Below the pieces are notes generated by a model that had not been told where the DNA came from, did no database searches, and saw nothing but the letters and a program-made list of their open reading frames with translations. From an uncultured Lentisphaera sp. (GTDB lineage: Bacteria > Verrucomicrobiota > Lentisphaeria > Victivallales > GWF2-50-93), in the NCBI GenBank assembly GCA_964638335.1, contig CAZXAC010000002.1, positions 1 through 33,592 of the forward strand: DNA of 33,592 nucleotides, given 5' to 3'. The stretch's first letter is position 1, and the number at the start of each line of letters is the position of its first letter. The position numbers and the translations under genes are program-made. Shown here piece by piece: positions 3,338 through 22,169 of this stretch.

Positions 3338-4189
3338 TCAGGAGAACACAACCGTTCTGCCTTGGAATACTATGATTCTGTTTTCCAGTTGGGCTTTCAG
3401 CGCCCTTGCCAGGACTATGCGTTCGATGTCTTTGCCTATCTGCTTCAATTCTTCGGGGTCGTTTTCGTGGTTGACTCTTTCGACATCCTGTTCTATAATC
3501 GGCCCCTCATCGAGGTCGGCTGTTACATAATGGGCTGTGGCGCCTATCATTTTTACGCCTCTTTCATATGCCTTGCGGTATGGATTTGCGCCTTGGAAAG
3601 CCGGAAGGAACGCATGGTGTATGTTTATTATCCTGCTGGAGTATTTTTGGACGAAATTTTTGCTTAGTATTCTCATGTATTTTGCGAGAACTAGGAGGTC
3701 TATGTGGTTTTTTGACAGCAGTTCGAGCACCTTCTCCTCCTGCGACTCCTTGTCTTCGTTCACAACCGGTACGCAGTAGAACGGCAACCTGAATTGCGTG
3801 GCGACGTATTCGAGGTCCGGGTGATTTGAGATTATTAAAGGAATTTCGCAGGGGAATTCTCCTTCCTTCCAGCGAAGTATTATGTCATACAGGCAATGCG
3901 ATTCCTTTGTCGCGAGTATCGCAATCCTTCTGGTGATATCGGAGTAGTGTGCCGACCATTCAAGAGAGTTTTTTCTTGCGAAATCCGCAAATTCTTTCTC
4001 AAGCTGTTCGCGGGTTGTCTTCATTCCGGCCAGATCAAGTTTCAGTCTCATGAAATATCTTGAGTTGGCGCTATCGGTATGTTGCTGGCAGTTTACGATG
4101 TTAAAGCCCTTATTAAAGAAAAATGACGTTATTTCGCAAACGAGCCCCTTGCGATCTTCGCATTGGATCAGAAACACTACGTTCTTCAT
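3338..4189 (-). CDS. purU: formyltetrahydrofolate deformylase
   Basis: 283 aa. An N-terminal ACT-like domain (VFLIQCEDRKGLVCEITSFF) is followed by a formyltransferase core (INIHHAFLPAFQGANPY, GATAHYVTADLDEGPII). Confidence 0.9.
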   Translation of the reverse strand: MKNVVFLIQCEDRKGLVCEITSFFFNKGFNIVNCQQHTDSANSRYFMRLKLDLAGMKTTREQLEKEFADFARKNSLEWSAHYSDITRRIAILATKESHCLYDIILRWKEGEFPCEIPLIISNHPDLEYVATQFRLPFYCVPVVNEDKESQEEKVLELLSKNHIDLLVLAKYMRILSKNFVQKYSSRIINIHHAFLPAFQGANPYRKAYERGVKMIGATAHYVTADLDEGPIIEQDVERVNHENDPEELKQIGKDIERIVLARALKAQLENRIIVFQGRTVVFS

Positions 4190-4901: not shown

Positions 4902-6173
4902 TCAACTCCTTTTAAGTTTTGCCACGAATACGGCGTCGGAATCCATTTCGGATGGGTTTACGTTTAGAATGCCCTCAAATATTTTTCCGCTGATAGGATC
5001 AGGAAATGTGCAGAGTTTGAAGGAAGGATTCGAAGCGGTGAACTCGGATATCACGCCTTCATTCTCCTTTCCGAATACCGAACATGTGGCATATACTAGC
5101 GTCCCGCCGCTTCTGACAGATTGAGAGGTTGCTTCGAGGATCGAGAGCTGATTTTTGTGGAATCTATCTATTTCGCTCTCCTGAGTGCGCCATCTGCCAT
5201 CCGGATTTCGTCTCCATGTGCCTGAGCAGGAGCATGGAGCGTCGACGAGCACACCGTCGAAAAATGACTCATGCCGTTTATCTCTTTTTGAAGCATCGGC
5301 TATTCGTGTACGCACATTGGATAATGAGGCTCTTGCCGTCCTTCTTTTGAGCTCTTCTATTTTTTTTTCGTCAAAGTCTTGGGAAAGGATTGAGCCTTTT
5401 CCGTTCATCATATCTGCCATTTGCAGGGTTTTTCCTCCTGCGCCGGCGCAGGCATCAAGCCACTTTTCCCCTGGCTTAGGGGCGGCAATGAGTCCTATCA
5501 TTTGTGAAGCTATGTCTTGGACCTCGAAGAGGCCGTTTTTGAATTCTGGCATTGAGTAGAGGCTGGTTTCCGATTTTAGAATTTTTACGGCATTTGGGAA
5601 ATTTTCCGGCATATTGAATTTTGCGTTTTGTCTTCTTAGCTCTGAAACTACTTTTTCTCTAGCGCCATTCTTTGTTCTTATCCATATTGGGGGGCGAGTC
5701 TGGAAGCTTTGCGTCAGATCATTAATCTTCAAGGCATCCGAAAGATTTGAAGTGAAGAATCCGGGAAGAAGTTCTTGCTGCTTGAAATTGGAAATGGGGA
5801 GGGAGAATTCCTGGGAAAGTTTTGCTGGCAACTCGCAGAAACTTAGTTTTTCCAAGGACTCATTTATGAAAGAAGCATTATCGAGGGCATTTCCGAGAAG
5901 ATCAGGGAAAGCCGCGAGTTTGCGAATTTCGCATTCCGCTTTGAGGCATTTTTTTATCCATCCCCACCAACGAAAAAGGGAGAAAATACTTTCGCTTATA
6001 AATCTCCTGTCCCTTGATCCGAGAAATTTTCTGGCTCTCAGGGACGAAGACAGGGATCTATCTGCCGGATAGCCGGATGAGAACCTGTCTAGGACCTCTT
6101 TCGCTATTTCATTCCGAGCTTTTTTGATTGCGGAAATCTTGTTTTCCGACAGCTTTGATATATCTTTTGTCAT
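4902..6173 (-). CDS. rsmB: 16S rRNA (cytosine-C5)-methyltransferase, NOL1/NOP2/Sun (RsmB-like) family
   Basis: SAM motif DACAGAGGKT, catalytic motifs DAPCSCSGTWRRNPD and YATCS, and a NusB-like N-terminal region. The track ORF extends to a TTG at 6296, but those 41 extra codons overlap acyP and look like noise. I prefer the ATG at 6173; an ATG at 6221 is also possible. Confidence 0.8.
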   Translation of the reverse strand: MTKDISKLSENKISAIKKARNEIAKEVLDRFSSGYPADRSLSSSLRARKFLGSRDRRFISESIFSLFRWWGWIKKCLKAECEIRKLAAFPDLLGNALDNASFINESLEKLSFCELPAKLSQEFSLPISNFKQQELLPGFFTSNLSDALKINDLTQSFQTRPPIWIRTKNGAREKVVSELRRQNAKFNMPENFPNAVKILKSETSLYSMPEFKNGLFEVQDIASQMIGLIAAPKPGEKWLDACAGAGGKTLQMADMMNGKGSILSQDFDEKKIEELKRRTARASLSNVRTRIADASKRDKRHESFFDGVLVDAPCSCSGTWRRNPDGRWRTQESEIDRFHKNQLSILEATSQSVRSGGTLVYATCSVFGKENEGVISEFTASNPSFKLCTFPDPISGKIFEGILNVNPSEMDSDAVFVAKLKRS

Positions 6174-6219
6174 TGCGGTTACTAAAACGTATTCGGGTTC
6201 AAAAGGCAAATAGACTTTC

Positions 6220-6498
6220 ATGAAAAAAAAGGCTTTTCTTATCAACATAAGAGGCAGAGTGACCGGAGTTGGCTTTCGTTGGGCTACTTTGGACAAGAGC
6301 GAGGATTTTTCGACGATTTCCGGATATGTGAGGAATCTTGCCCGTGGCGAGGTTGAGGTGTTTATTCAAGGCGAGGAGGGCGAGGTTGATGCGATGGCTG
6401 ACTGGCTGAAGAGCGGTCCGCCTCTTGCTGTTGTGGAAAATTTTAATAAAATATCATGCCCTTTAAATGAGGATTATAAGTCTTTTTCTATCATATGA
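6220..6498 (+). CDS. acyP: acylphosphatase
   Basis: 92 aa. INIRGRVTGVGFRWAT matches the acylphosphatase V.G.VQGVGFR signature. A YVRNLARGEVEVFIQGEEGEV..M..WL core is also present. Confidence 0.85.
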   Translation: MKKKAFLINIRGRVTGVGFRWATLDKSEDFSTISGYVRNLARGEVEVFIQGEEGEVDAMADWLKSGPPLAVVENFNKISCPLNEDYKSFSII

Positions 6499-6609: not shown

Positions 6610-7071
6610 ATGTTATGTCCGCATTGCGATTGTGCTGATGATAAAGTGGTAGACAGCAGGACGACCCTTGAGGGGGCTGGAATCCGCAGGCGCAGGGAAT
6701 GCCTTAAGTGTGGTCATCGTTTTACGACTTATGAGACGATAACCCGGGAAGAACTCAAGGTGATAAAGAGAAATTCTTCCGTCCGTGAGGATTTTGACCG
6801 TGCCAAGCTGAGGGACGGTGTGGAAAGGGCATGCTGGAAACGTCCGATTGGGGACGATGATATAGATAAGATTGTTGATGACGTTGTAGCCGGAATAGAG
6901 AAGGATTACGACAAAGAAGTTACGAGTCGTGAAATAGGCAAGAGGGTGATGTTGGCGTTGAGCAAGATTGATGAGGTCGCCTACGTAAGGTTTGCTTCGG
7001 TTTACAGGCGTTTTAAGGATGTTGAGGAATTCATAAGCGAAATAAAGAAGATTGGCGAGGAACAAGAATGA
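6610..7071 (+). CDS. nrdR: transcriptional repressor NrdR (zinc ribbon plus ATP-cone)
   Basis: 153 aa. MLCPHCDCADDKVVDSRTTLEGAGIRRRRECLKCGHRFTTYE is the canonical NrdR N-terminus. It is followed by an ATP-cone (VIKRNSSVREDFDRAKL...VAYVRFASVYR). Confidence 0.95.
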   Translation: MLCPHCDCADDKVVDSRTTLEGAGIRRRRECLKCGHRFTTYETITREELKVIKRNSSVREDFDRAKLRDGVERACWKRPIGDDDIDKIVDDVVAGIEKDYDKEVTSREIGKRVMLALSKIDEVAYVRFASVYRRFKDVEEFISEIKKIGEEQE

Positions 7072-8018
7072 TAAGTCCAAGCGGAGAGCAAATTCTTATA
7101 TCCTGCGGAGATGGTTCGGTGAGTTCCTTCAGGGTGGAGGAACTTCAATCCAAAATATACCAGGCGTGCTTGGAATGTGGTTTCGAGGATTGTTGGCTTT
7201 CCGAGGATCTCGCTCTATCGGTGGAATATTTGATTTTGGGCACAGGAGAGAGAAGGGAATTCTCAATGGAAGAGATCTTCTCTTTCACCTCACGTCTTTT
7301 GGAAGATACCGGGCATCACAACATAGCGCTCCGCTTCAGGAGGAACTGTGGCGTGCTTCAGGCTAGTCATACTTCGCAGATCGAATCGGTACGACTTCTC
7401 ATATCGCAGCGCATCCCGGGGATCGGTCAACGGGATCTGGAAAGGATAGCTTCTCTAGTGTCATCAAGTCTGAAGTCTTTGGGTATTGAAAGGGTGGAAG
7501 AGGATCTTATACTAAGTTTTGCGAAACACTATCTTAGGAATGCCCTTGCCGAAATCGTCCCCAAAGCTGAACTCTCTCCGGATCAAGCAGTTATAATTCT
7601 ATCAAAATCTCAAATAAAAGATATACTAGTGTCTTTCTCCGGAGGTGGGAAATATGTTTCGGGAGGAGTCCTCTCGTTGCATCCGATCAGTAGGCTTTTC
7701 CCTTCTCTGAAGATTTCCATAAGTCTTGCGAGATTCGCTGAAGTCAACTGCCTTTGTCCACCTCTTACCGAGCTTGCTCTTGCTCCGCGTTTTGCGGAAT
7801 TCTCAGAATTTATGTGCGAAGCCAAGACAAAGATTGTCGCTTTGGTGTCTTCAGAGCTTGGTCTTCTTCCTGTTGACATACCGGTTGTGCTAAGGATAAC
7901 GGATTCGATTGAATTCGCTCGGAAATATATGGGTGTGGCATCGGACGAGGATGAGTTCATGCGCGGGATACTGTCCTGCATGAGAGATTTCATCCCCGGC
8001 GAGCTCATAATAAAATAA
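7068..8018 (+). CDS. hypothetical protein with an ATP-cone-like N-terminus, translationally coupled to nrdR
   Basis: 316 aa with an ATGA start/stop overlap with nrdR. The N-terminal ~90 aa (ILISCGDGSVSSFRVEELQSKIYQACLECGF...LSEDLALSVEYL...FSMEEIFSFTSRLLEDTGHHNIALRFRRN) follow the ATP-cone pattern V.krDG....F...ki...i..A......l...la..V.......i..eeI...V...L...g....A..f. I do not recognise the C-terminal ~220 aa. Confidence 0.7.
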   Translation: MISPSGEQILISCGDGSVSSFRVEELQSKIYQACLECGFEDCWLSEDLALSVEYLILGTGERREFSMEEIFSFTSRLLEDTGHHNIALRFRRNCGVLQASHTSQIESVRLLISQRIPGIGQRDLERIASLVSSSLKSLGIERVEEDLILSFAKHYLRNALAEIVPKAELSPDQAVIILSKSQIKDILVSFSGGGKYVSGGVLSLHPISRLFPSLKISISLARFAEVNCLCPPLTELALAPRFAEFSEFMCEAKTKIVALVSSELGLLPVDIPVVLRITDSIEFARKYMGVASDEDEFMRGILSCMRDFIPGELIIK

Positions 8019-8032
8019 GAGGAGAACTCAAG

Positions 8033-9748
8033 ATGGCCGACAGACTTAGAGATTTTGGCGATACCCTCATCAAGGTCATAGGTGGTTCCATGAAGGGAAC
8101 CGAGTTTAACGCGAAGAAGGGGGAAATTAGTTTCGGCCGAGGACAAGAGGCGGATATACAAATACATGATCAACTCATATCGAGAGTTCACTGCAAACTG
8201 ACTTGGGAGGGCGGAAACTGGTATGTCGAGGATCTGAACAGCACAAACGGCACTTGGATGATGGGCAGGAAGTTGACCAAAAAATCCATATTGCCTCTAC
8301 GAACTTCAGTCAGGGTCGGCAATTCCATATTTGAATTGTTTAACATGCACAGCCGTGATGATACGCAGTCAGTCAGCATGCCGCTAGTGACCTACAGGAT
8401 ACAACCCCAGACCTTGGCATCGTCACAGCCGATGCAGGCTACCGAGGCACATAAGGAAATGACGAGGCTTATAGAGGAGGAGAACAAGCGTCTATCCCTG
8501 ATATACAAGTTTCAAAATCAGATAAGTTCGATATTTAAGGAAAATGAGCTTTATCCCAGAATTACAAAAGCCGTCATGGGGTCGATAAAATCTGATGAAG
8601 TGTTTTTGCTTGTTTACGACGTTGATAATGGTCGTTTCTCTCCTGTAGCCTGCCGCAAGGGAGATCAGGACCTGACCGATATATCTAAAAATGCCATCAA
8701 CAACAATATTGTTGATTTCGTGCAGGAGAACCATGAAGCCGTGCTTTCAACTGGCAACAGGATAGGCGATCCTTTTAAGGCGGCCAGCGAGGGGCTTGCG
8801 GCTCCGACAATGAATATAATGTGCGTCCCGATGTTCGGCAAGCAGCAGCTTAACGGGATGATCTACACGACAATGACCAGCGCGGAACGCCAGTACAACG
8901 AGAACGACCTCAGAATCCTTACGGTGCTCGGCCATATAGCCGGTATGGCGCTTGAGAATGTCCGCCTCATAGAGTTCAATTTAAAAAATGAAAGGCTCGT
9001 CGCCACGGGGACAACTGCGGCAAGCCTGTCTCACTGCATAAAGAACATTATAGCTGGATTGGACGGAAGCCTTAATCTTTTAAAGATGGGAATAGATGAG
9101 AACGACATCAACCTTGCGAACGAAGCTCTTGGCATACTTAGCAAGAATCATCGCCGCTTGGGCAATCTCGCTCTTGACCTGCTTAATCTCACCACGGACC
9201 AAAAACTTAACCTCAAGCTTATAGACCTAGGTGATGTGATAGCCGAGTTGACTGAAACTATGGCGGTTCAGTTTAAGCAGGATGGAATCACTATATCCGC
9301 AACTCTTGATCCGTCTGGAATACCGCTTTGCGCGGAAGTTGACGAGAAGGGCATACACAGAGTGATATTGAATCTTCTTACCAACGCCGAGCATGCCGTG
9401 CTAGAGAGAATAGAAAAAATGGGAGCGGAACCTCCCGGCAACATCACTATATCTGCAAAATTCAATGAACAAAAAGACCAGATCCTTGTTTCTGTTTCAG
9501 ATAATGGAATAGGAATAGAGTCAGATAGAGCTGCAACACTTTTTGATATGTTCAACACTACAAAGGGAATGGGCGGTAGCGGTCTGGGACTTGCTGTTTC
9601 AAAAAAGATAGTGGAAGCCCACGCTGGGACTATATATGCGACAGGACAGAAGGACAAGGGATGTACGATGACCTTTTCCCTTCCTGTAGGTGTGGAAGAA
9701 TCTACCACGTCCACCAGAACAATAAGAAAAATCTTCAGGGAATCCTGA
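8033..9748 (+). CDS. FHA-GAF sensor histidine kinase (no receiver domain)
   Basis: 571 aa. FHA domain: FGRGQEADIQIHDQLISRVHCKLTWEGGNWYVEDLNSTNGTW. A central GAF-like region follows, then the H-box AASLSHCIKNII and the HATPase motifs NLLTNAEHAV, DNGIGI and GGSGLGLAVSKKIVEAHAGTI. Confidence 0.9.
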   Translation: MADRLRDFGDTLIKVIGGSMKGTEFNAKKGEISFGRGQEADIQIHDQLISRVHCKLTWEGGNWYVEDLNSTNGTWMMGRKLTKKSILPLRTSVRVGNSIFELFNMHSRDDTQSVSMPLVTYRIQPQTLASSQPMQATEAHKEMTRLIEEENKRLSLIYKFQNQISSIFKENELYPRITKAVMGSIKSDEVFLLVYDVDNGRFSPVACRKGDQDLTDISKNAINNNIVDFVQENHEAVLSTGNRIGDPFKAASEGLAAPTMNIMCVPMFGKQQLNGMIYTTMTSAERQYNENDLRILTVLGHIAGMALENVRLIEFNLKNERLVATGTTAASLSHCIKNIIAGLDGSLNLLKMGIDENDINLANEALGILSKNHRRLGNLALDLLNLTTDQKLNLKLIDLGDVIAELTETMAVQFKQDGITISATLDPSGIPLCAEVDEKGIHRVILNLLTNAEHAVLERIEKMGAEPPGNITISAKFNEQKDQILVSVSDNGIGIESDRAATLFDMFNTTKGMGGSGLGLAVSKKIVEAHAGTIYATGQKDKGCTMTFSLPVGVEESTTSTRTIRKIFRES

Positions 9749-9779
9749 GAAATTGCTTACCAGCCAAGCGGAGCCTTCT

Positions 9780-10520
9780 TCAGAACGATACCTTTACATC
9801 TCCGCTGACTTTGATAGGAGGAGGTATTATTCTGACTCCACCATTATTATCCCAGTCGTGATCCCATTTGCGGAACATTAGAGGAGATGTAGGGTCCCCC
9901 CAGGGATTTATATCAACTATCAGTATTCTTCCGCTCGCTGTAAAATATATGTCAACCGCGGAACTCACCGTCGGCAAGAGCCAGCTTACTTCTCCAAAAA
10001 ACGCACTAGCCTTTTTCCAGAATCTTTCCTTCACCCCCTCCAGCCTCCTGAAGTGTCTTGTGAGCCACAGCTGGCTCATTCCGACAAGTTTTTTATCCTT
10101 TATAAAAAGACGGAATTCCTTTGGTCTGCTCATCCTGCGATATGGTCGTACGCAGATATGATCTGAATTCCCAGAGGCGACCGATTTCCTGACTTTTTCG
10201 CTGAGAGCCAAAAATCTCCAAGCGCTTTCTGCTGAGATGACCGCTCCATATTTGGATTCAAATCTTTCAGTGTCAGTTGGCGCTGCGCAGTCTACTGATA
10301 CAAATTTGCTTCCGAAAAAGATTTTCATCGCTCCATTAAGACGGTGGATCGCGCCCTGAACGCTTTCCCCCTCGCAGACTCCTTCAATTATAAGTTTCTT
10401 ATCCTCTTCATTAAGCTTCATGAAGCTCGTCGGAAAAGTATAATTCGCCAAGGAATCATACCATGCGGAAGTTTTGAATACTTGCAGATTCTGTTCAGAA
10501 GATTTCATCGTCACTGTCAT
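9780..10520 (-). CDS. Cdc123/D123-family ATP-grasp protein (bacterial homologue)
   Basis: 246 aa with block-wise similarity to eukaryotic CDC123, recalled from memory. SAWY lies near the N-terminus. KFVSVDCAAPTD resembles VFPKLNWSAPRD. CVRPYRRMSRPKEFRLFIKDKKLVGMSQ resembles LVLRKW..IPGAEFRCFVKENKLIGISQ. VDIYFTASGRILIVDINPWGDPTSPLMF resembles FDIYRDSRGKVWLIDFNPFGEVTDSLLF. The start could instead be the ATG at 10508. Confidence 0.8.
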   Translation of the reverse strand: MTVTMKSSEQNLQVFKTSAWYDSLANYTFPTSFMKLNEEDKKLIIEGVCEGESVQGAIHRLNGAMKIFFGSKFVSVDCAAPTDTERFESKYGAVISAESAWRFLALSEKVRKSVASGNSDHICVRPYRRMSRPKEFRLFIKDKKLVGMSQLWLTRHFRRLEGVKERFWKKASAFFGEVSWLLPTVSSAVDIYFTASGRILIVDINPWGDPTSPLMFRKWDHDWDNNGGVRIIPPPIKVSGDVKVSF

Positions 10521-11424
10521 CTTCCTCCTCTTTAGATGGATTGAGTTTTTTCTGAAGGCTGTTTATGACTACAAAAGTGTAAATAGAGAAACAGATGAAG
10601 CAAACTGTTTTGAAATCCAAAAAAGGAAGAGAAAGCCCGCTGTATAGAGTCGCTATGATAATTGCCGGAAAACTTGAATAAATAATAATTGAAAGGAAAT
10701 TCAATGCTTTTATTTTTTCGAGAATTTGACTGCCAAAAACACTGGAAACGGTTAAGATCATCACAGCATAGAGCGGTATCGAAAAGATTATGTCAAAAAT
10801 TATTCCTCCAAAATGTATGATTAAAACCAGAAGGAAAATTGGGATTTTGGCCTCGGAGAAGTCAAAGTATTCCTTGTCTTGGTATATTGATACATCGAAG
10901 CTGTCTTTTCTTGCTGTATCAAGTACAGATTCGAGCTTTCGAGAGCTTCCCTTTGAACTTTGCATTTTTGCAAGTCCGGAAAGAAGGGGGAAGTATTCAT
11001 ATTTGGAGTCTTTTTTGACCCAGAAATACAACGAATCGGGCATCCAGATGACCCCATTGATTGCGCCAGAATCTTCTATTTTATGCTCAGTTAACTTATC
11101 CGGGATGTAATCCACTTTTGTCTTTCCGAGTTTTATTTTTTTTGGCACAGCTTCCTCTCTGATTGGAAGCATTCCTTTGGAGTCGAACTTTATGCCGCCA
11201 AAACAACGGTAAAGAGCGTCGCAGTAGGCGAAGCTTGTCTTCATCAAAGGAGGAGCTTTGATGAGAACGTAGATGCAGGAGCACAATACTGACAATATCA
11301 AAAAATGACTAATAGTACGGGAAAACGGGAACTTGCTTATACGGGAGAAAACGTCGGTCCCGGAACACACACCCAGCGTAGTCTCAAGGAAACCCTCTGC
11401 GATTTTGGCGTTTTCTATTTTCAT
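10495..11424 (-). CDS. hypothetical polytopic membrane protein with an acidic C-terminal tail
   Basis: 309 aa. One N-terminal TM segment is followed by a ~140-aa loop and 4-5 C-terminal TM helices. It ends in SKEEEDDSDDEIF. It overlaps def by 4 nt upstream and the ATP-grasp gene by 14-26 nt downstream. Confidence 0.7.
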   Translation of the reverse strand: MKIENAKIAEGFLETTLGVCSGTDVFSRISKFPFSRTISHFLILSVLCSCIYVLIKAPPLMKTSFAYCDALYRCFGGIKFDSKGMLPIREEAVPKKIKLGKTKVDYIPDKLTEHKIEDSGAINGVIWMPDSLYFWVKKDSKYEYFPLLSGLAKMQSSKGSSRKLESVLDTARKDSFDVSIYQDKEYFDFSEAKIPIFLLVLIIHFGGIIFDIIFSIPLYAVMILTVSSVFGSQILEKIKALNFLSIIIYSSFPAIIIATLYSGLSLPFLDFKTVCFICFSIYTFVVINSLQKKLNPSKEEEDDSDDEIF

Positions 11425-12014
11425 TTCACTGTTCTTATGAAATTGTTCTGAGCGGAATTTTTCTTAAGCAAATCCATTTCCGATTTTATTTTGGAGAACG
11501 CTTTTTTCCCAAGACGATCGACGAACAGAACCCCATCAAGGTGGTCAATTTCGTGTTGGATTGCCCTGGAAAGAAGTCCCGCGCATTCTATGGTGATCTT
11601 TTCTTCGTAGTTGACTATTCCCTCAAAAACTATTTGGGCAGGTCTCTCAACTTCGGAAAATATTCCGGGGACGCTGAGGCACCCCTCTTCACGGATGGAG
11701 AGTTCTTCCCCGAAAGATATTATTCGGGGATTTATTATTACAGCCGGCATTTTTCTGGGAAGAAGTTCTTCCCCTGGGCTTAAAGGACGACCAAGTTTGA
11801 CCGGATCAGGGCTGGGAACGCACAGCGCTATCATTCTCAATTTTACCCCCAATTGCGTTGCCGCCAATCCAACACCATCATACTCCAGCATCATCCTGAT
11901 AAGCTCATCTCCGAAGCGCTTTATCTCTCCGTCTATTTTTTTTACGGGGACAGCCTTCTCAGAAAGTTTCGGGTGTCCATATACAAGTATGTTTAATTTT
12001 GAATCTATTTTCAT
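11421..12014 (-). CDS. def: peptide deformylase
   Basis: 197 aa with all three PDF motifs: GVGLAATQLG, EGCLSVPG and QHEIDHLDG. Confidence 0.95.
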   Translation of the reverse strand: MKIDSKLNILVYGHPKLSEKAVPVKKIDGEIKRFGDELIRMMLEYDGVGLAATQLGVKLRMIALCVPSPDPVKLGRPLSPGEELLPRKMPAVIINPRIISFGEELSIREEGCLSVPGIFSEVERPAQIVFEGIVNYEEKITIECAGLLSRAIQHEIDHLDGVLFVDRLGKKAFSKIKSEMDLLKKNSAQNNFIRTVK

Positions 12015-12063: not shown

Positions 12064-12828
12064 CTACAAACCGCCAGTCACTTCATAAGTTGAGCCGCTT
12101 ATGTAAGATGCCTCCTTTGAGGCGAGGAAAAGAACCGCGTTTGCAACCTCTTCGGGTTTCCCGAAACGTTTTAAGGGGACTTGATCTCTATAAGCTTTTT
12201 TTTGTTCTTCTGATAGATCTGCTATAAGTTCAGTATCTATGAAGCCGGGAGATACGCAATTCACGGTTATGTTTTTCCTCGCCGCCTCTTTGCAGAGGGA
12301 TTTCGCAAAGGCTTCCTGAGCCGCCTTTGACGAAGCGTAGTTCGCCTGACCCGCGAAACCATATTTGCCAGAGGGAGAACATATATTGATAATCCGTCCA
12401 AATTTTGATTCCATCATCTTCATCAGAGCGAACTTGCTCATGTTAAATGTTCCAGTGATGTTTACATCAAGAACCTTCTTCCAGTCATGAAAACTCATCA
12501 TTCCAACTATCGAGTCCTTCCGGATCCCGGCACAGTTCACAAGAATATCCAAAGAAGCGTGCCCAGAATTGAATTCCTTGAAAAAAATCTCCACTGCATT
12601 GTAGTCTGAGACGTCGAGTTGACGGGTCTTCAGAGGGAAGCCTTTCCAATCCTCAACGAATCGCTCTGCCGAAACGGAGTCTCCTGCGAAAATCGCAGTT
12701 ACCGAGGCTCCAGCTTTCAAAAAAGCCTCACTTATGGAGCGCCCTATGCCGCGCGTGCCACCGGTTACGATTGCGCAAGATCCACTAAAATCAAAATTCG
12801 TATTTTTATTGTCCGGCATGATGACCAT
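12064..12828 (-). CDS. fabG: short-chain dehydrogenase/reductase, 3-oxoacyl-ACP reductase (FabG)-like
   Basis: 254 aa. TGGTRGIGRS Rossmann motif, NCAG, and catalytic YASSKAA (YxxxK). The specific substrate cannot be read from the sequence. Confidence 0.75.
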   Translation of the reverse strand: MVIMPDNKNTNFDFSGSCAIVTGGTRGIGRSISEAFLKAGASVTAIFAGDSVSAERFVEDWKGFPLKTRQLDVSDYNAVEIFFKEFNSGHASLDILVNCAGIRKDSIVGMMSFHDWKKVLDVNITGTFNMSKFALMKMMESKFGRIINICSPSGKYGFAGQANYASSKAAQEAFAKSLCKEAARKNITVNCVSPGFIDTELIADLSEEQKKAYRDQVPLKRFGKPEEVANAVLFLASKEASYISGSTYEVTGGL

Positions 12829-12995: not shown

Positions 12996-15188
12996 ATGAA
13001 ATTCCAATGCCAGATGTGCAGCTGCGCCATTCATGATGTCAAGCCGTGGATGCTTGGCAAGAAGATTGTCTGCCCTAATTGCTCCAAGAACGTGGCGATG
13101 CCATCGAGTCCTTTCGGCGTTGGACGAATGATAGGCGACTATATAATAGAAGAGAAGCTGGGAGAAGGATCAATAGGAACAGTCTATCTAGCTCATCAGG
13201 CGTCTCTTGACAGGAAGGTCGCACTTAAAATTCTCTCCGAACAGTATGCTAATGCTAAAGGCATGTCGGCTTTCCTTTCAGAAGCGAGATCGGCGGCGAA
13301 ACTTTTGCATCCTAATCTTGTTCAGTGTTTCGGCGTCGGAGAAGAGAATGGCGTATGCTATATGGCGATGAACTACATAAAAGGGAAAACTCTTAAAGAT
13401 AAGATCAAGTCGAACGGAAAGATTGACGTTGATGAAGCTCTTCACATAACTCAGCAGGTCGCAGAGGCCCTTCACTGCGCCTGGGAGGAAGCCAGACTGA
13501 TACACCGCGACGTAAAACCTGAGAATATAATGATAGATGACGACGGCGTGGTGAAGCTTACTGACCTTGGACTTGCCATGCCTCAGACGGCTTGGCACGA
13601 AAATATGGAAATATCGGGCAGCCCCTCTTACATGAGTCCAGAGCAGTTTACAGGAGAGAAACTCGATTCGAGAAGCGATATATACAGCCTAGGAGTTTCA
13701 TTGTATCAGATGCTATGCGGAAAATTGCCATTTGTAGGTAAGACTTTGAATTCCGTAGCCAGGCAGCACTTCAAGGAAAAGGCCGTCCCTATAAACAAAC
13801 TTGTGCCAACCACGCCTAGGGCAGTATCAGATCTTGTCGGGAAAATGATGGCAAAAAATCCGGACGACAGGTTCAAAAGTATGGAGGACTTGCTCCAGGA
13901 GATATGGCGCATACGCCAGACAACAGCCCCGGAAAGGGAGCTTGTGCCCGAAGTGCACACTGTGACAATGAAAAAACTCGATTATGACCTGCAACTTCAA
14001 TCGAAGGCGAGAAAGATTCAGATACAAATGTCCGAACATGAGGAGAGGAAGAAGTCCGAAGTCCTCATAAAGATAGTCGCAATTACCGTGCCAATAGTCG
14101 TAATCGCGGTGATTCTACTGATAGCAATGTTCAGTCACAACGACGTGAAAAATCAAGAGGGAAATAAACTTATTGAAAATCTGGAGTCCATGCTTGCGGA
14201 TGAGGATGAGAGTTTGGTCGCTCTTGACGATGAGTTTGAGAAAACCAAGAAAGCCTTGGGAAAACTCGTACAAAAGCCAGATCCGTATATGATGACAAGG
14301 TTGAGCCTCTGCGAAACAAAAATCGAAAATATCAGGATAAAAGAAAAGAATAAGCTGCTGGAAGCCCAGGTTTCGTCAAGCGGGCAGAGGCTTCGTGAAA
14401 TCGAAAACAAAATGCAGGAAACTTCAAACGTAGCGAATGATTCCAAAGAAAAGGAGAAACGGATAAAACAGCTCGAAAGCAAGATCCAATCTATCCAAAA
14501 AGATTTGGAAAAAGAAAGGGAAATCGTACAGAATTTGAGAAACAGGATAAATTCAATGCGGGAAAGAGAAATGAAACTTTGGATTGATGATCTGCGAGTA
14601 AAGACGGCAATACTCATAAGAAATGGTAAGTTTTTAGATGTTTACGCATTGCTCAAGATTTCTTCCCAGGGAGTTTCTGCAAAACAAGAAAGATGGATAG
14701 ACGATAAAAAAGAAGAAGTTGAAAACATAGAAAAGATCTTTACCAGTATCGAGAATAGCGGTCAACGTTTTGCGGGATTGGCTCTGAAAGAAGGCAAACT
14801 GAAGGAAATAAATGGAGCAACTGCCACAGTCATTAACAATTCAAACGTTGCTGAAAACATATCTTGGAGAAATCTTTCCACGGAAAGCCTTAAAATGATA
14901 ATCCCCCCTGACGTCTTGTCAGCATGCGGAGATAAACTTCCGTACTATCTCGCAATGCTTAACGGAAGATTTTCAGAAGCAAACGAAATTATTGTCAAGG
15001 AGACAGAACTAAAAGATACTATGTTGGCGGTGAGGAATTACGTTTACGAAAATATAAGATATCTGGCGGCTACAGACAAGAAAAAGGCCGCCGCAAGATC
15101 CGAGGATTTTTTTAGGGATTTCGATAAAACGCAAGACCTCGACAAACTGAAAAAAGAGCTGAAATCCGTTCTAGATAACGTCAACTGA
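12996..15188 (+). CDS. Ser/Thr protein kinase with an N-terminal zinc ribbon, one TM segment and a long coiled-coil C-terminal region
   Basis: 730 aa. Zinc ribbon: CQMCSC...CPNCSK. Hanks kinase motifs: GEGSIGTVY, VALKIL, HRDVKPENIM, DLGLA and SPSYMSPEQ. TM segment: VAITVPIVVIAVILLIAMF. A KE-rich heptad-like region follows. Confidence 0.9.
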   Translation: MKFQCQMCSCAIHDVKPWMLGKKIVCPNCSKNVAMPSSPFGVGRMIGDYIIEEKLGEGSIGTVYLAHQASLDRKVALKILSEQYANAKGMSAFLSEARSAAKLLHPNLVQCFGVGEENGVCYMAMNYIKGKTLKDKIKSNGKIDVDEALHITQQVAEALHCAWEEARLIHRDVKPENIMIDDDGVVKLTDLGLAMPQTAWHENMEISGSPSYMSPEQFTGEKLDSRSDIYSLGVSLYQMLCGKLPFVGKTLNSVARQHFKEKAVPINKLVPTTPRAVSDLVGKMMAKNPDDRFKSMEDLLQEIWRIRQTTAPERELVPEVHTVTMKKLDYDLQLQSKARKIQIQMSEHEERKKSEVLIKIVAITVPIVVIAVILLIAMFSHNDVKNQEGNKLIENLESMLADEDESLVALDDEFEKTKKALGKLVQKPDPYMMTRLSLCETKIENIRIKEKNKLLEAQVSSSGQRLREIENKMQETSNVANDSKEKEKRIKQLESKIQSIQKDLEKEREIVQNLRNRINSMREREMKLWIDDLRVKTAILIRNGKFLDVYALLKISSQGVSAKQERWIDDKKEEVENIEKIFTSIENSGQRFAGLALKEGKLKEINGATATVINNSNVAENISWRNLSTESLKMIIPPDVLSACGDKLPYYLAMLNGRFSEANEIIVKETELKDTMLAVRNYVYENIRYLAATDKKKAAARSEDFFRDFDKTQDLDKLKKELKSVLDNVN

Positions 15189-20288: not shown

Positions 20289-21653
20289 CTATATGTCTAT
20301 CGCATTATCGGTCATATCCTTGTCCCAGTTGTCCATTAGGAAATCATCTTGAATCCCATCGGCGATCAGCCTGAATGCGTATCTTACTTGTTCTTCGTAG
20401 AATTCGCAAAAGGCTCCGCGCTTGTCCATGCCTCCATTCATTGTGTGCGCCTCCGCCGGACATGGAGAGCCGCAAAAATTTCTTATCGCGCAATCTTTGC
20501 AAAACTTAATGTTTTCAACCATCCTGCCAGTTATGTCTTGGAAAGGCTTTGAAGAAAGAATTTTAGGAATTTTATCCTCGAAGATGTTGCCTCCTTTGAA
20601 CTCTGGGACCCCTATGAATTCACTGCATGGAAATACATCTCCGGATGCCGCCACGGCGAAAAAGCACCTTCCTCCTCCACAGGGTGATATGTCGCACATA
20701 AGTTTTCTGCCGGATGGAGCGAGAATAGCAAGAAGAATATTTGCGAAATTCGCTACGACTATCTTCCTTCCTGTTTTTAGATAAAGATCTCTGCTCCTGT
20801 CAAGAGCCCGTATGAAGTGTTCAGCGTTCTTCTTCTCATCTGGTTTTATTGTCCGTGAAAGCGGCTGGGTGCATCTGATTGTGTTCAGAAGGCATGTCCG
20901 GACCCCATTTTCATGAAAGAATTCAACGGTCGAGGACAGGCAATCCATGTTAAGCGACGACATAGTGCAAATAACGCTCAAACCTTCGTAAGCGGAAAAT
21001 TTATCAAGCGTTTTGCAGACTTCCGAGAATGTCCCTTTGCCGGACCATTTTTTTCGGCTTTTGTCAGATACTTTCGATGAAGGCCCATCCATGGACAATC
21101 CTATCATCACTCCATTATCTTTGATGAAACGAACATCATCGTCATCTAGTAAAGTGCCGTTGCTTTGAATTCCAAATAAAAAATCACTTCCAAATTTACT
21201 TATGATATTGAACATAGCCTCTTTGTTGACAGTTGGCTCTGCTCCGTGAAATATAATCTGCGCCTTCCTCCCCTTTGGAAGTGTCAATTTGAAGAAATCT
21301 CTTATTCTCGACATGGCATCATACATCTTGGCTTCGCTCATATTCCTGCCGTTGCGCCTCATCTTTTCCGGGATGTAACAGTACTTGCAGTTTAAATTGC
21401 ATCTGTCGGTGGGATTGAAATACACCGCCGAAGGCTTGAGGTTGAAACGCAAATCATTCATTTCCTTTCGGTAGTCTGCGATTTTCGCTGAAAAAGACTT
21501 TGACAGCTTGGAGTCGAAGAGATGTTTTCCTAGATCGTTTTTTTCAACTAAAGCCCAAAACGCTGAGTCGGGTTCTATCACTGCGCAGTACTTCTTATGA
21601 GATATGTCTAGTGGAAGAAGCCGCGGATTTTCGCCAGTATTAAAATTTTTCAT
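20289..21653 (-). CDS. radical SAM/SPASM-domain enzyme (peptide-maturase / anSME-like)
   Basis: 454 aa. The CNLNCKYCY radical SAM cluster lies about 85 aa from the N-terminus. C-terminal auxiliary-cluster cysteines (CDISPCGGGRCFFAVAASGDVFPCSEF...CKDCAIRNFCGSPCPAEA...CEF) are typical of SPASM/twitch domains. Confidence 0.9.
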   Translation of the reverse strand: MKNFNTGENPRLLPLDISHKKYCAVIEPDSAFWALVEKNDLGKHLFDSKLSKSFSAKIADYRKEMNDLRFNLKPSAVYFNPTDRCNLNCKYCYIPEKMRRNGRNMSEAKMYDAMSRIRDFFKLTLPKGRKAQIIFHGAEPTVNKEAMFNIISKFGSDFLFGIQSNGTLLDDDDVRFIKDNGVMIGLSMDGPSSKVSDKSRKKWSGKGTFSEVCKTLDKFSAYEGLSVICTMSSLNMDCLSSTVEFFHENGVRTCLLNTIRCTQPLSRTIKPDEKKNAEHFIRALDRSRDLYLKTGRKIVVANFANILLAILAPSGRKLMCDISPCGGGRCFFAVAASGDVFPCSEFIGVPEFKGGNIFEDKIPKILSSKPFQDITGRMVENIKFCKDCAIRNFCGSPCPAEAHTMNGGMDKRGAFCEFYEEQVRYAFRLIADGIQDDFLMDNWDKDMTDNAIDI

Positions 21654-21912: not shown

Positions 21913-21936
21913 TTTTCCTTCAGATCCCAGTTTTTT

Positions 21937-22135
21937 GTCTCAGCAGGTCTTCTGGCTTCCGGATCAAGTCCTTGAATTCAACCTTCCCGGAAGCATATCG
22001 AAATTTCGACCAAGCTCCAGTGGTCCCCTGCAAAATCGCAAATACGATTAAATTTAGCAGGAACAAATTCAAGAATCCCCAGTTACAGCGGTGGGTCCGC
22101 CGCGGATTTTAACCGCGTTCCATTTATACTGAAAC
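21937..22135 (-). promoter_or_regulatory. cobalamin (B12) riboswitch aptamer
   Basis: The minus-strand RNA reads GUUUCAGUAUAAAUGGAACGCGGUUAAAAUCCGCGGCGGACCCACCGCUGUAACUGGGG...GGGGACCACUGG...UCCGGGAAGGU...GGAAGCCAGAAGACCUGCUGAGAC. These blocks match the conserved cobalamin-riboswitch cores: AGGGAA, the GGUGAAAAUCC-type hairpin, CGC..CUGUAA, GCCACUG, GGGAAGG, and the B12 box rAGYCMGgAgaCCkGCc at 21943-21958. P1 pairs GUUUCAG (22135-22129) with CUGAGAC (21943-21937). The layout resembles the E. coli btuB leader as I recall it. Confidence 0.85.
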
Positions 22136-22141
22136 GGACAT

Positions 22142-22169
22142 AATCTAAATCAGTGCCCCAAAAAGTCAA
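22142..22169 (-). promoter_or_regulatory. sigma70-like promoter candidate (TTGACT-16 nt-TAGATT) driving the riboswitch
   Basis: On the minus strand, TTGACT sits at 22169-22164 and TAGATT at 22147-22142. The predicted start near 22135 coincides with the 5' strand of P1. Confidence 0.5.

Follow-up and report, generated by a model that had tools for sequence, protein, structure and literature searches.

In eukaryotes CDC123 is an essential protein of unclear chemistry, an ATP-grasp protein for which no ligation reaction is known. It binds domain III of eIF2-gamma and promotes assembly of the alpha and gamma subunits of eIF2, and it is described as an ATP-binding, ATP-hydrolysing assembly chaperone in which no ligase activity has been found (PMC8844851, PMC12860950). 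Its bacterial relatives have so far been read as mobile conflict effectors: the text of the survey by Burroughs, Zhang and Aravind from 2015 (PMC4431377) describes bacterial members 'of two distinct types', one associated with type VI systems and the other of the Legionella effector type, and that paper already includes lentisphaerae members in its alignments and a Lentisphaera araneosa sequence as a search seed. The present analysis concerns a relative of another kind, encoded in a stretch of 33,592 nucleotides (nt) from an uncultured Lentisphaera sp. (contig CAZXAC010000002.1, positions 1 to 33,592; the whole stretch is referred to as the window). This gene, here called D123, specifies a Cdc123-like protein of 246 amino acids and lies on the minus strand behind the gene of a 309-residue membrane protein, MEM, which in turn follows def, the gene for peptide deformylase (PDF).

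The three open reading frames (ORFs) overlap exactly as an original prediction, made from the letters of the window, had described: def and MEM share 4 nt (ATGA), and MEM and D123 share 26 nt if the first ATG of D123 (10520) is used or 14 nt if the second (10508) is used. The locus is a variant within the known CDC123 family and no new kind of system. As far as the literature was searched, the housekeeping operon context, the membrane partner, a variant arrangement with map and ffh, and the clade-specific loss of two basic residues are new. No paper was found that treats Cdc123 together with deformylase; the supplement to PMC4431377 may list the def context. The view that bacterial homologues are known only computationally agrees with that paper, which lists lentisphaerae.

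Fold, subfamily and nucleotide pocket of D123

The similarity between D123 and CDC123 is far beyond chance. Pfam PF07065 matches the protein at 63.7 bits (cut-off 24; E=2.1e-17) over residues 111-219, the C-terminal kinase-like half only, and a 31-sequence family profile finds human CDC123 (8phd; E=3.6e-15) as well as S. pombe Cdc123 (E about 5e-7). The AlphaFold2 model (pLDDT 91.7, pTM 0.85) carries the likeness further: the ten best Foldseek matches in the PDB are all Cdc123 chains (TMq 0.75-0.78 over about 250 aligned columns; for 4zgq and 8phd TMq 0.78, E about 1e-15 (3e-15), 250-270 columns), while the other ATP-grasps Ddl, LysX and RimK reach a TMq of only 0.31-0.44. Because the superposition is full-length, and because the Cdc123 chains stand far ahead of the next ATP-grasp class, the entire protein is modelled with a Cdc123 fold, its N-terminal domain included. 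The four sequence blocks that had been noticed in common with CDC123 are real and fall in conserved parts of the family alignment, in which W20, Y21, P81-T82-D83, E135-F-R137, D190, D203 and N205 are invariant; the Pfam score, the profile match and the Foldseek TM of 0.78 all bear out the identification of the 246-residue protein as being of the Cdc123/D123 ATP-grasp type.

Set against eukaryotic CDC123 (Pfam D123, R2K.1; structures 4ZGN-4ZGQ and 8PHD), D123 shares the full-length fold (TM 0.78, about 250 columns), the ordered motifs WY..., AP.D, EFR.F,.SQ and D.Y...D.NP., the Asp and DxN metal ligands, the ExR motif and, by way of gene context, a link to translation. It differs in having no low-complexity inserts (246 residues versus 336), in the replacement of K104 by S or F and of R111 by T, in a C-terminal PPPxKxSGDVxVSF of its own and in its coupling to a membrane protein. 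Given that bacteria have no eIF2, the client of D123 must also differ from that of the eukaryotic protein.

When 1.84 billion cluster representatives were scanned exhaustively with HMMER, 2056 matched at E<=1e-3 and just 26 at E<=1e-30, with a sharp gap in score between the weakest assigned subfamily member (P0146, 1.7e-46) and the first outgroup (1.5e-25). By sequence, then, D123 belongs to a distinct housekeeping subfamily of bacterial CDC123, and this subfamily appears to have been inherited vertically. It is also marked by a C-terminal extension (consensus PPPxKxSGDVxVSF) that the outgroups do not have. As a separate observation, L. araneosa appears to carry two family members, an orthologue of the window protein and a more divergent paralogue (CVVGLDSCMPTDS, gi 494490064), the latter without the lysines discussed next.

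The R2K clade of ATP-grasps is defined by two basic residues (PMC4431377), which in the human protein are K104 and R111 (the numbering of R111 is from PMC12860950). In the alignment, FPKLNWSAPRDA of human CDC123 faces FVSVDCAAPTDT of D123, so that K104 corresponds to S75 and R111, in the motif SAP[KR]D, to T82, in APTDT. Counted over 81 orthologues, as are all residue frequencies here, the first position is S in 49, F in 17, C in 8, A in 5 and T in 2 and is never K, and the second is always T; neither of the basic residues that define the clade is present in the subfamily. The AlphaFold model that the original prediction had called for has the ATP-grasp fold, and the alignment has ExR, the Asp and DxN, the last two aligning with the VFDIY...IDFNPF segment of human CDC123, but not the lysine and arginine of the R2K dyad. 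The motif ExR is that defined for ATP-grasps in PMC4431377.

All 11 outgroup proteins, among them an amoebozoan, a Brevibacillus and metagenomic proteins, have K or R at the first position, and 10 of them have both basic residues in a motif F-x-[KR]-x...SPKD, the remaining one (P0165) having Thr at the second. Because the outgroups keep these residues, the alignment identifies the loss of the dyad as derived and specific to the D123 clade. Deep members of the subfamily mostly show the same pattern, with one exception for each position: P0146 still has K at the first, and in P0133 the second is K.

Such a loss, with Phe at the lysine position in 17 of the 81 orthologues, could mean that D123 is a pseudo-enzyme, a nucleotide-independent scaffold that retains only the Cdc123 fold. 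This is improbable, as E135, R137, D190, D203 and N205 are invariant in 81/81 orthologues and in the deep branches, and the new invariant polar or basic residues around the site (D77, T82, T84, R86 and K90) indicate selection on a working pocket. The other invariants are D83, K109 and R128, and R86, four residues past T82, might compensate for the second basic residue. Since the metal ligands are invariant and new invariant polar residues have been acquired, we infer that the nucleotide pocket of the subfamily has been remodelled and has not decayed. The loss of the dyad with the metal ligands kept amounts to a natural experiment on the mechanism of the pocket.

Operon context in Lentisphaerota and in the deeper branches

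The original prediction had been staked beforehand on the conservation of the gene neighbourhood, and that neighbourhood is conserved. When one genome per GTDB species was scanned, a relative turned up in at least 163 genomes, of which the best 80 loci were kept; every record title among these that names a taxon is from Lentisphaerota (Lentisphaera, Lentisphaeria, Victivallales). MEM lies immediately upstream of D123 on the same strand in 77 of the 80 loci (L005 and L030 lack the gene, and the sequence of L004 is truncated), and the order def-MEM-D123 is found in 69. The gene gltX stands 5' of def in at least 35 loci, and an OEP/TolC-like gene lies farther upstream in 49. The gap between MEM and D123 has a median of 15 nt over 65 pairs, 30 of which overlap or are separated by 5 nt or less. 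An independent scan of metagenome contigs agrees, with MEM upstream of D123 in 62 of 80 loci and with most of the others too short upstream to tell. An apparent fusion of MEM and D123 in L038 and L053 was rejected, as the tblastn match crossed an in-frame stop codon.

Deep branches, taken as subfamily representatives less than 50% identical to the main group, were examined individually, and none of their loci encodes a MEM homologue. What many of them have instead is a place directly behind ffh: L087 has map-ffh-D123-pdxJ with overlapping or abutting boundaries, L090 has map-ffh-D123-AMP-binding-pdxJ-efp, L083 has ffh-D123-rseP with overlaps on both sides, and in L097, L098, L099 and L103 ffh lies 9-22 nt upstream of D123, L098 and L099 having map as well. 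The lysine-less subfamily is thus linked, across lineages, to three ribosome-exit factors, PDF, MAP and SRP54/Ffh, whose genes are its immediate operon neighbours in different lineages; the connection is one of gene context only, with no sequence relationship. At the exit of the ribosome, each of the three works on nascent chains. Deep branches in which D123 directly follows map and ffh strengthen the connection with translation or N-terminal processing that had first been drawn from def.

In L025 (6739-7860) and L080 (6699-7811), both without def upstream, MEM comes after a Skp/OmpH-like gene, and the release factor 2 gene prfB starts a few nt past the stop codon of D123. In MEM-less lineages an AMP-binding (adenylate-forming, FadD-like) enzyme of about 570-606 residues begins a few nt past the D123 stop (L090 4696-6408; L088 5739-7559; also L095, L097-L099 and L103), in D123 clusters less than 50% identical to one another; it may stand in for MEM functionally or point to acyl chemistry. 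Beside or near D123, two unrelated deep-branch contigs encode a protein with Peptidase_U32 and DUF3656 (L091 120-2219, plus L093 4762-7017, on the minus and plus strands, respectively). The contig of L087 also carries a 362-residue gene (9144-10232, minus strand) with a weak Tubulin Pfam match, which could be BtubA/B-like or divergent FtsZ-like and hints at a lineage of the Planctomycetes-Verrucomicrobia-Chlamydiae (PVC) type.

The type VI and Legionella types of bacterial CDC123 belong to the same Pfam family, but they are sporadic, horizontally transferred, located in conflict loci and equipped with both lysines, whereas D123 is phylum-wide, has lost both and sits in a fixed housekeeping operon (gltX-def-MEM-D123 or map-ffh-D123). 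That D123 might itself be a conflict-system effector or accessory of these types would accord with its nearest outgroup homologues, which keep the lysines and occur in phage-like or island-like contexts (L081, L084) that agree with the conflict-system picture of PMC4431377. Distribution and context nonetheless led to the rejection of this reading, which is highly improbable: the family is about 50% identical at a fixed chromosomal position in at least 163 species genomes, its neighbours are housekeeping genes, the gap in score to other homologues is sharp, and no VgrG, Hcp, PAAR, SUKH or toxin genes were seen among the neighbours, in a survey that was not aimed at type VI genes. Beside the outgroup D123 of L081, a phage-like stretch contains an HNH endonuclease and, nearby, a 126-residue protein with an acVLRF1/eRF1-like release-factor domain (7983-8363, plus strand).

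A more serious alternative holds that MEM and D123 are a real module that serves the envelope, lipids or transport, and that adjacency to def, gltX, map and ffh is inherited housekeeping synteny. The OEP/TolC-like gene in 49 loci, the AMP-binding (FadD-like), polyprenyl synthase, MurJ and ExbD neighbours in deep branches, the large domain of MEM that is modelled as facing outside, and the six loci that have MEM-D123 and sufficient upstream sequence and yet no def all speak for it. A single ancestral arrangement hardly explains, however, how three different ribosome-exit factors came to be linked to D123 proteins less than 50% identical, and the stop codon of one gene overlaps or adjoins the start of the next at ffh (L083, L087) and between def and MEM; the envelope module is accordingly rather unlikely.

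The membrane protein MEM and its acidic tail

MEM diverges fast, with 18-30% identity among orthologues, and for this reason word-indexed database searches returned only 4 and 9 proteins; its orthologues were drawn from the collected D123 genome loci. Among 41 of these, 32 match DUF1189 (PF06691, best E=2.2e-10) and 14 match Yip1 in Pfam, the window copy matches only Yip1, at 16.7 bits and below the cut-off of 28.6, and precomputed Pfam assignments place PF06691 in 5 of the 9 database homologues. By these matches MEM is probably a divergent DUF1189 (Yip1 clan) protein. It is multi-pass and helical; it differs from proteins of that family in that the window copy falls below the Pfam cut-off, in a conserved Cys-x-Gly-Thr motif modelled as cytoplasmic and, in half of the family, in an acidic tail that ends in Phe. 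No paper was found that assigns a function to DUF1189, and the linkage with D123 represents a first functional lead for these proteins.

The AlphaFold2 model of MEM has a moderate pLDDT of 76.5 because it was built on an alignment of only 9 sequences. Residues 34-75, 193-229, 240-263 and 271-294 are helical in it, 77-149 form a beta-rich domain and the tail at 297-309 is disordered (pLDDT below 50), and a PDB fold search with it gave no match below E=0.3 and hence no similar solved structure. A positive-inside tally over 70 orthologues found a net charge of +1.7 before the first transmembrane helix and +2.4 in the loop between the second and third, and negative charge to either side of the large domain as well as in the loop between the third and fourth. 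Model and tally support a predicted topology with the N-terminus inside, four transmembrane helices, the C-terminus inside and the beta-rich domain outside, which would place the tail and the conserved N-terminal motif on the cytoplasmic side, where D123 is. His40, at the cytoplasmic end of the first transmembrane helix, is invariant. Within residues 20-40 (window 11305-11367, minus strand), Cys20 of the C-x-G-T motif and His40 are among the most conserved residues on the predicted cytoplasmic face, and together they could be a metal, acyl or interaction site.

The original prediction had taken the acidic tail of MEM as an obvious candidate substrate or partner of D123. As a partner, MEM is favoured by the conserved coupling of the two genes; as a substrate, its tail is disfavoured by being acidic in only 31 of 70 orthologues, by the MEM-less branches and by the lost lysine. 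The tail was scored by its charge over the last 12 residues, which is -3 or lower in those 31 orthologues, the other 39 not being acidic. The last residue is Phe in 21 of the 70 and the second-to-last in 8 more. On the D123 tree, the combination of an acidic run with Phe is found in several major clades and about half of the orthologues, but whole clades lack it, among them Victivallis (...GESNE) and one with ...DKLK, and there D123 is equally conserved. The idea that the tail is acidic only because its codons contain the purine-rich ribosome-binding site for D123 was considered and rejected, since the motif is commoner in non-overlapping gene pairs (24 of 34 pairs at least 12 nt apart versus 11 of 31 overlapping pairs).

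A RimK-like or tubulin-tyrosine-ligase (TTL)-like D123, that is, an ATP-dependent amino-acid ligase that extends or re-caps this tail, would make sense of several of these features. The ATP-grasp fold is present with ExR, the Asp and DxN; RimK and TTL types belong to the same superfamily and have ExR, and a neighbour with an acidic tail suggests a possible C-terminal substrate. The tail is modelled as cytoplasmic and disordered, about half of the orthologues have an acidic run that ends in Phe, well above the rate at which Phe occurs in the background, the embedded ribosome-binding site does not explain the motif, and many other MEM tails end in D or E, which recalls, by a general-knowledge analogy, detyrosinated tubulin. 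Even so, such a ligase is improbable. Two features that go with RimK and TTL types, a conserved acidic tail and the ATP-binding lysine, are both missing: the tail is not conserved across MEM orthologues, with whole clades lacking the motif beside an equally conserved D123, and the strand-2 lysine that binds ATP in ATP-grasp ligases is gone. D123 is also structurally distant from these enzymes (TMq 0.31-0.41), branches without MEM still have it, and no charge-complementary covariation was seen. Moreover, ligase activity has not been found for any Cdc123 (PMC8844851).

Where it is present, the acidic, Phe-ending tail would be better understood as a short docking motif than as a ligase substrate. 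A docking peptide fits better than a universal substrate because the motif is selected but dispensable while the enzyme is invariant. Acidic-aromatic C-termini such as the SSB tail and the EEY/F motif are classic docking peptides.

Proposed role and the features of the window

The linkage to def and gltX or to map and ffh, together with the coupling to MEM, suggests a role for D123 in co-translational protein biogenesis. In outline, D123, which in Lentisphaerota is translationally coupled to MEM, would form a complex with it at the inner membrane face, MEM being the anchor or partner; the complex would take part in making proteins co-translationally where the ribosome exit meets the membrane, and D123, by analogy with Cdc123, would use a nucleotide to assemble or regulate one component of this machinery. 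A variant in which D123 acts on such a component as a protein ligase is rated less likely, assembly or regulation being preferred to ligation because Cdc123 is an ATP-hydrolysing chaperone without known ligase activity. The occurrence of prfB after D123 in two loci and of efp near it in L090 supports the biogenesis reading. This role, the process, partnership and mechanism of which are drawn from gene context, is put forward tentatively, with a likelihood that falls somewhat short of even.

A number of points weigh against it. Inside a single phylum, gene order can be preserved even where the genes are not functionally coupled, and neighbours such as OEP, polyprenyl synthase and MurJ would suit a role in the envelope just as well. 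About half of the deep contexts have no translation gene (L088, L089, L091, L092 and L093); among their neighbours are DAHP synthase, polyprenyl synthase, Peptidase_U32/DUF3656 (twice) and rubrerythrin, and the AMP-binding enzyme, the commonest downstream neighbour in deep branches without a translation gene, may instead be a sign of acyl or lipid chemistry. With its ATP-binding lysine lost, the protein may no longer use ATP. Finally, a search for covariation between D123 columns and the tail motif, weak and confounded by phylogeny, gave no basic patch and nothing convincing, its top column running opposite to charge complementarity.

A bolder form of the biogenesis role, on present evidence unlikely, makes D123 a fourth player at the ribosome exit beside PDF, MAP and the signal recognition particle (SRP): a vertically inherited Cdc123 subfamily, tethered to the membrane in Lentisphaeria by a Yip1-clan protein, whose remodelled pocket would assemble or modify a component of the machinery. 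If this were true, the part that eukaryotic CDC123 plays in translation would go back to a bacterial ancestor already linked to translation and not to the conflict-system effector proposed in 2015. More broadly, the context of D123 suggests that the link of the family to translation predates eukaryotes. In place of the mobile effectors hitherto described, this compact protein is conserved phylum-wide in operons and so offers a tractable bacterial system for the function of the Cdc123 fold, with Victivallis vadensis and Lentisphaera araneosa as cultured hosts.

Table 1. Features of the def-MEM-D123 region, in window coordinates
Feature	Position	Strand	Details
D123, Cdc123/D123-type ATP-grasp-fold protein	9780..10520	-	246 aa, or 242 aa from second ATG 10508; Pfam PF07065, AlphaFold2, Foldseek
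D123 strand 2 and next loop	10263..10304	-	aa 73-86, FVSVDCAAPTDTER; site of both R2K basic residues in CDC123 and outgroups
D123 ExR motif of peptide-ligase-type ATP-grasps	10110..10118	-	E135-F-R137; E and R in 81/81 orthologues
D123 putative Mg2+/phosphate-binding Asp and DxN	9906..9953	-	D190, D203-I-N205 (human D233, D246xN248); 81/81 orthologues
D123 subfamily-specific C-terminal extension	9783..9824	-	PPPIKVSGDVKVSF; conserved to last residue in main group and deep branches
MEM, DUF1189-like (Yip1 clan) membrane protein	10495..11424	-	309 aa; orthologue Pfam matches, AlphaFold2 model
MEM N-terminal motif FLxxxxxVCxGTxxF, modelled cytoplasmic	11347..11391	-	aa 12-26; F12, C20, F26 at least 90% conserved
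MEM C-terminal tail, acidic and Phe-ending, modelled disordered and cytoplasmic	10498..10554	-	aa 291-309, QKKLNPSKEEEDDSDDEIF; protein ends ...SKEEEDDSDDEIF
GAGGAGG Shine-Dalgarno-like run for D123 start	10524..10530	-	within MEM-tail Glu codons, just 5' of first ATG; sequence reading
def, peptide deformylase	11421..12014	-	197 aa; Pfam PF01327 E=3e-42; TIGR00079 134.9 vs cut-off 103.95
FabG-like short-chain dehydrogenase	12064..12828	-	adh_short_C2 E=7e-55; 49 nt upstream of def, same strand
Weak terminator-like hairpin and T-run	9735..9748	-	32 nt past D123 stop; consensus scan only

Within this region (Table 1), the translation of def has all three catalytic motifs complete (GLAATQ, EGCLS and HEIDH) and passes the TIGR00079 equivalog cut-off, and the GAGGAGG run can serve as the ribosome-binding site of D123. 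In this lineage alone, the transcription unit probably begins with the gene of the FabG-like dehydrogenase, the synteny of which is confined to three Lentisphaera loci (L001-L003); elsewhere gltX occupies its position. Terminator-like sites of the kind found past D123 in the consensus scan are no commoner here than in shuffled sequence.

The rest of the window is ordinary chromosome, with gyrA, purU, rsmB, nrdR, a Ser/Thr kinase gene, pfk, queC and others, and gyrA, rsmB, nrdR and pfk give D123 a housekeeping setting. Both purU (ACT plus formyl transferase; 3338-4189, minus strand) and rsmB (4902-6296, minus strand) lie about 5-8 kb from def. The classic arrangement in E. coli is def-fmt-rsmB; no fmt gene is present in the window, although def and rsmB are. 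Convergent with D123 is an unusual FHA-GAF-HisKA-HATPase sensor kinase (8033-9748, plus strand), preceded by a 316-residue ORF with only a faint ATP-cone match (7068-8018, plus strand), just after nrdR (6610-7071); neither the kinase nor this ORF is syntenic in related Lentisphaera loci. Divergent from the dehydrogenase-def-MEM-D123 unit is a gene for a 730-residue Ser/Thr protein kinase (12996-15188, plus strand) with an N-terminal CxxC...CxxC, a single transmembrane helix and a tail that forms a long coiled coil; at 62-68% identity, this gene is syntenic in L001-L003. Farther along, a cobalamin riboswitch (Rfam RF00174, 63.3 bits; 21925-22148, minus strand) lies upstream of a radical-SAM/SPASM gene (20289-21653, minus strand).

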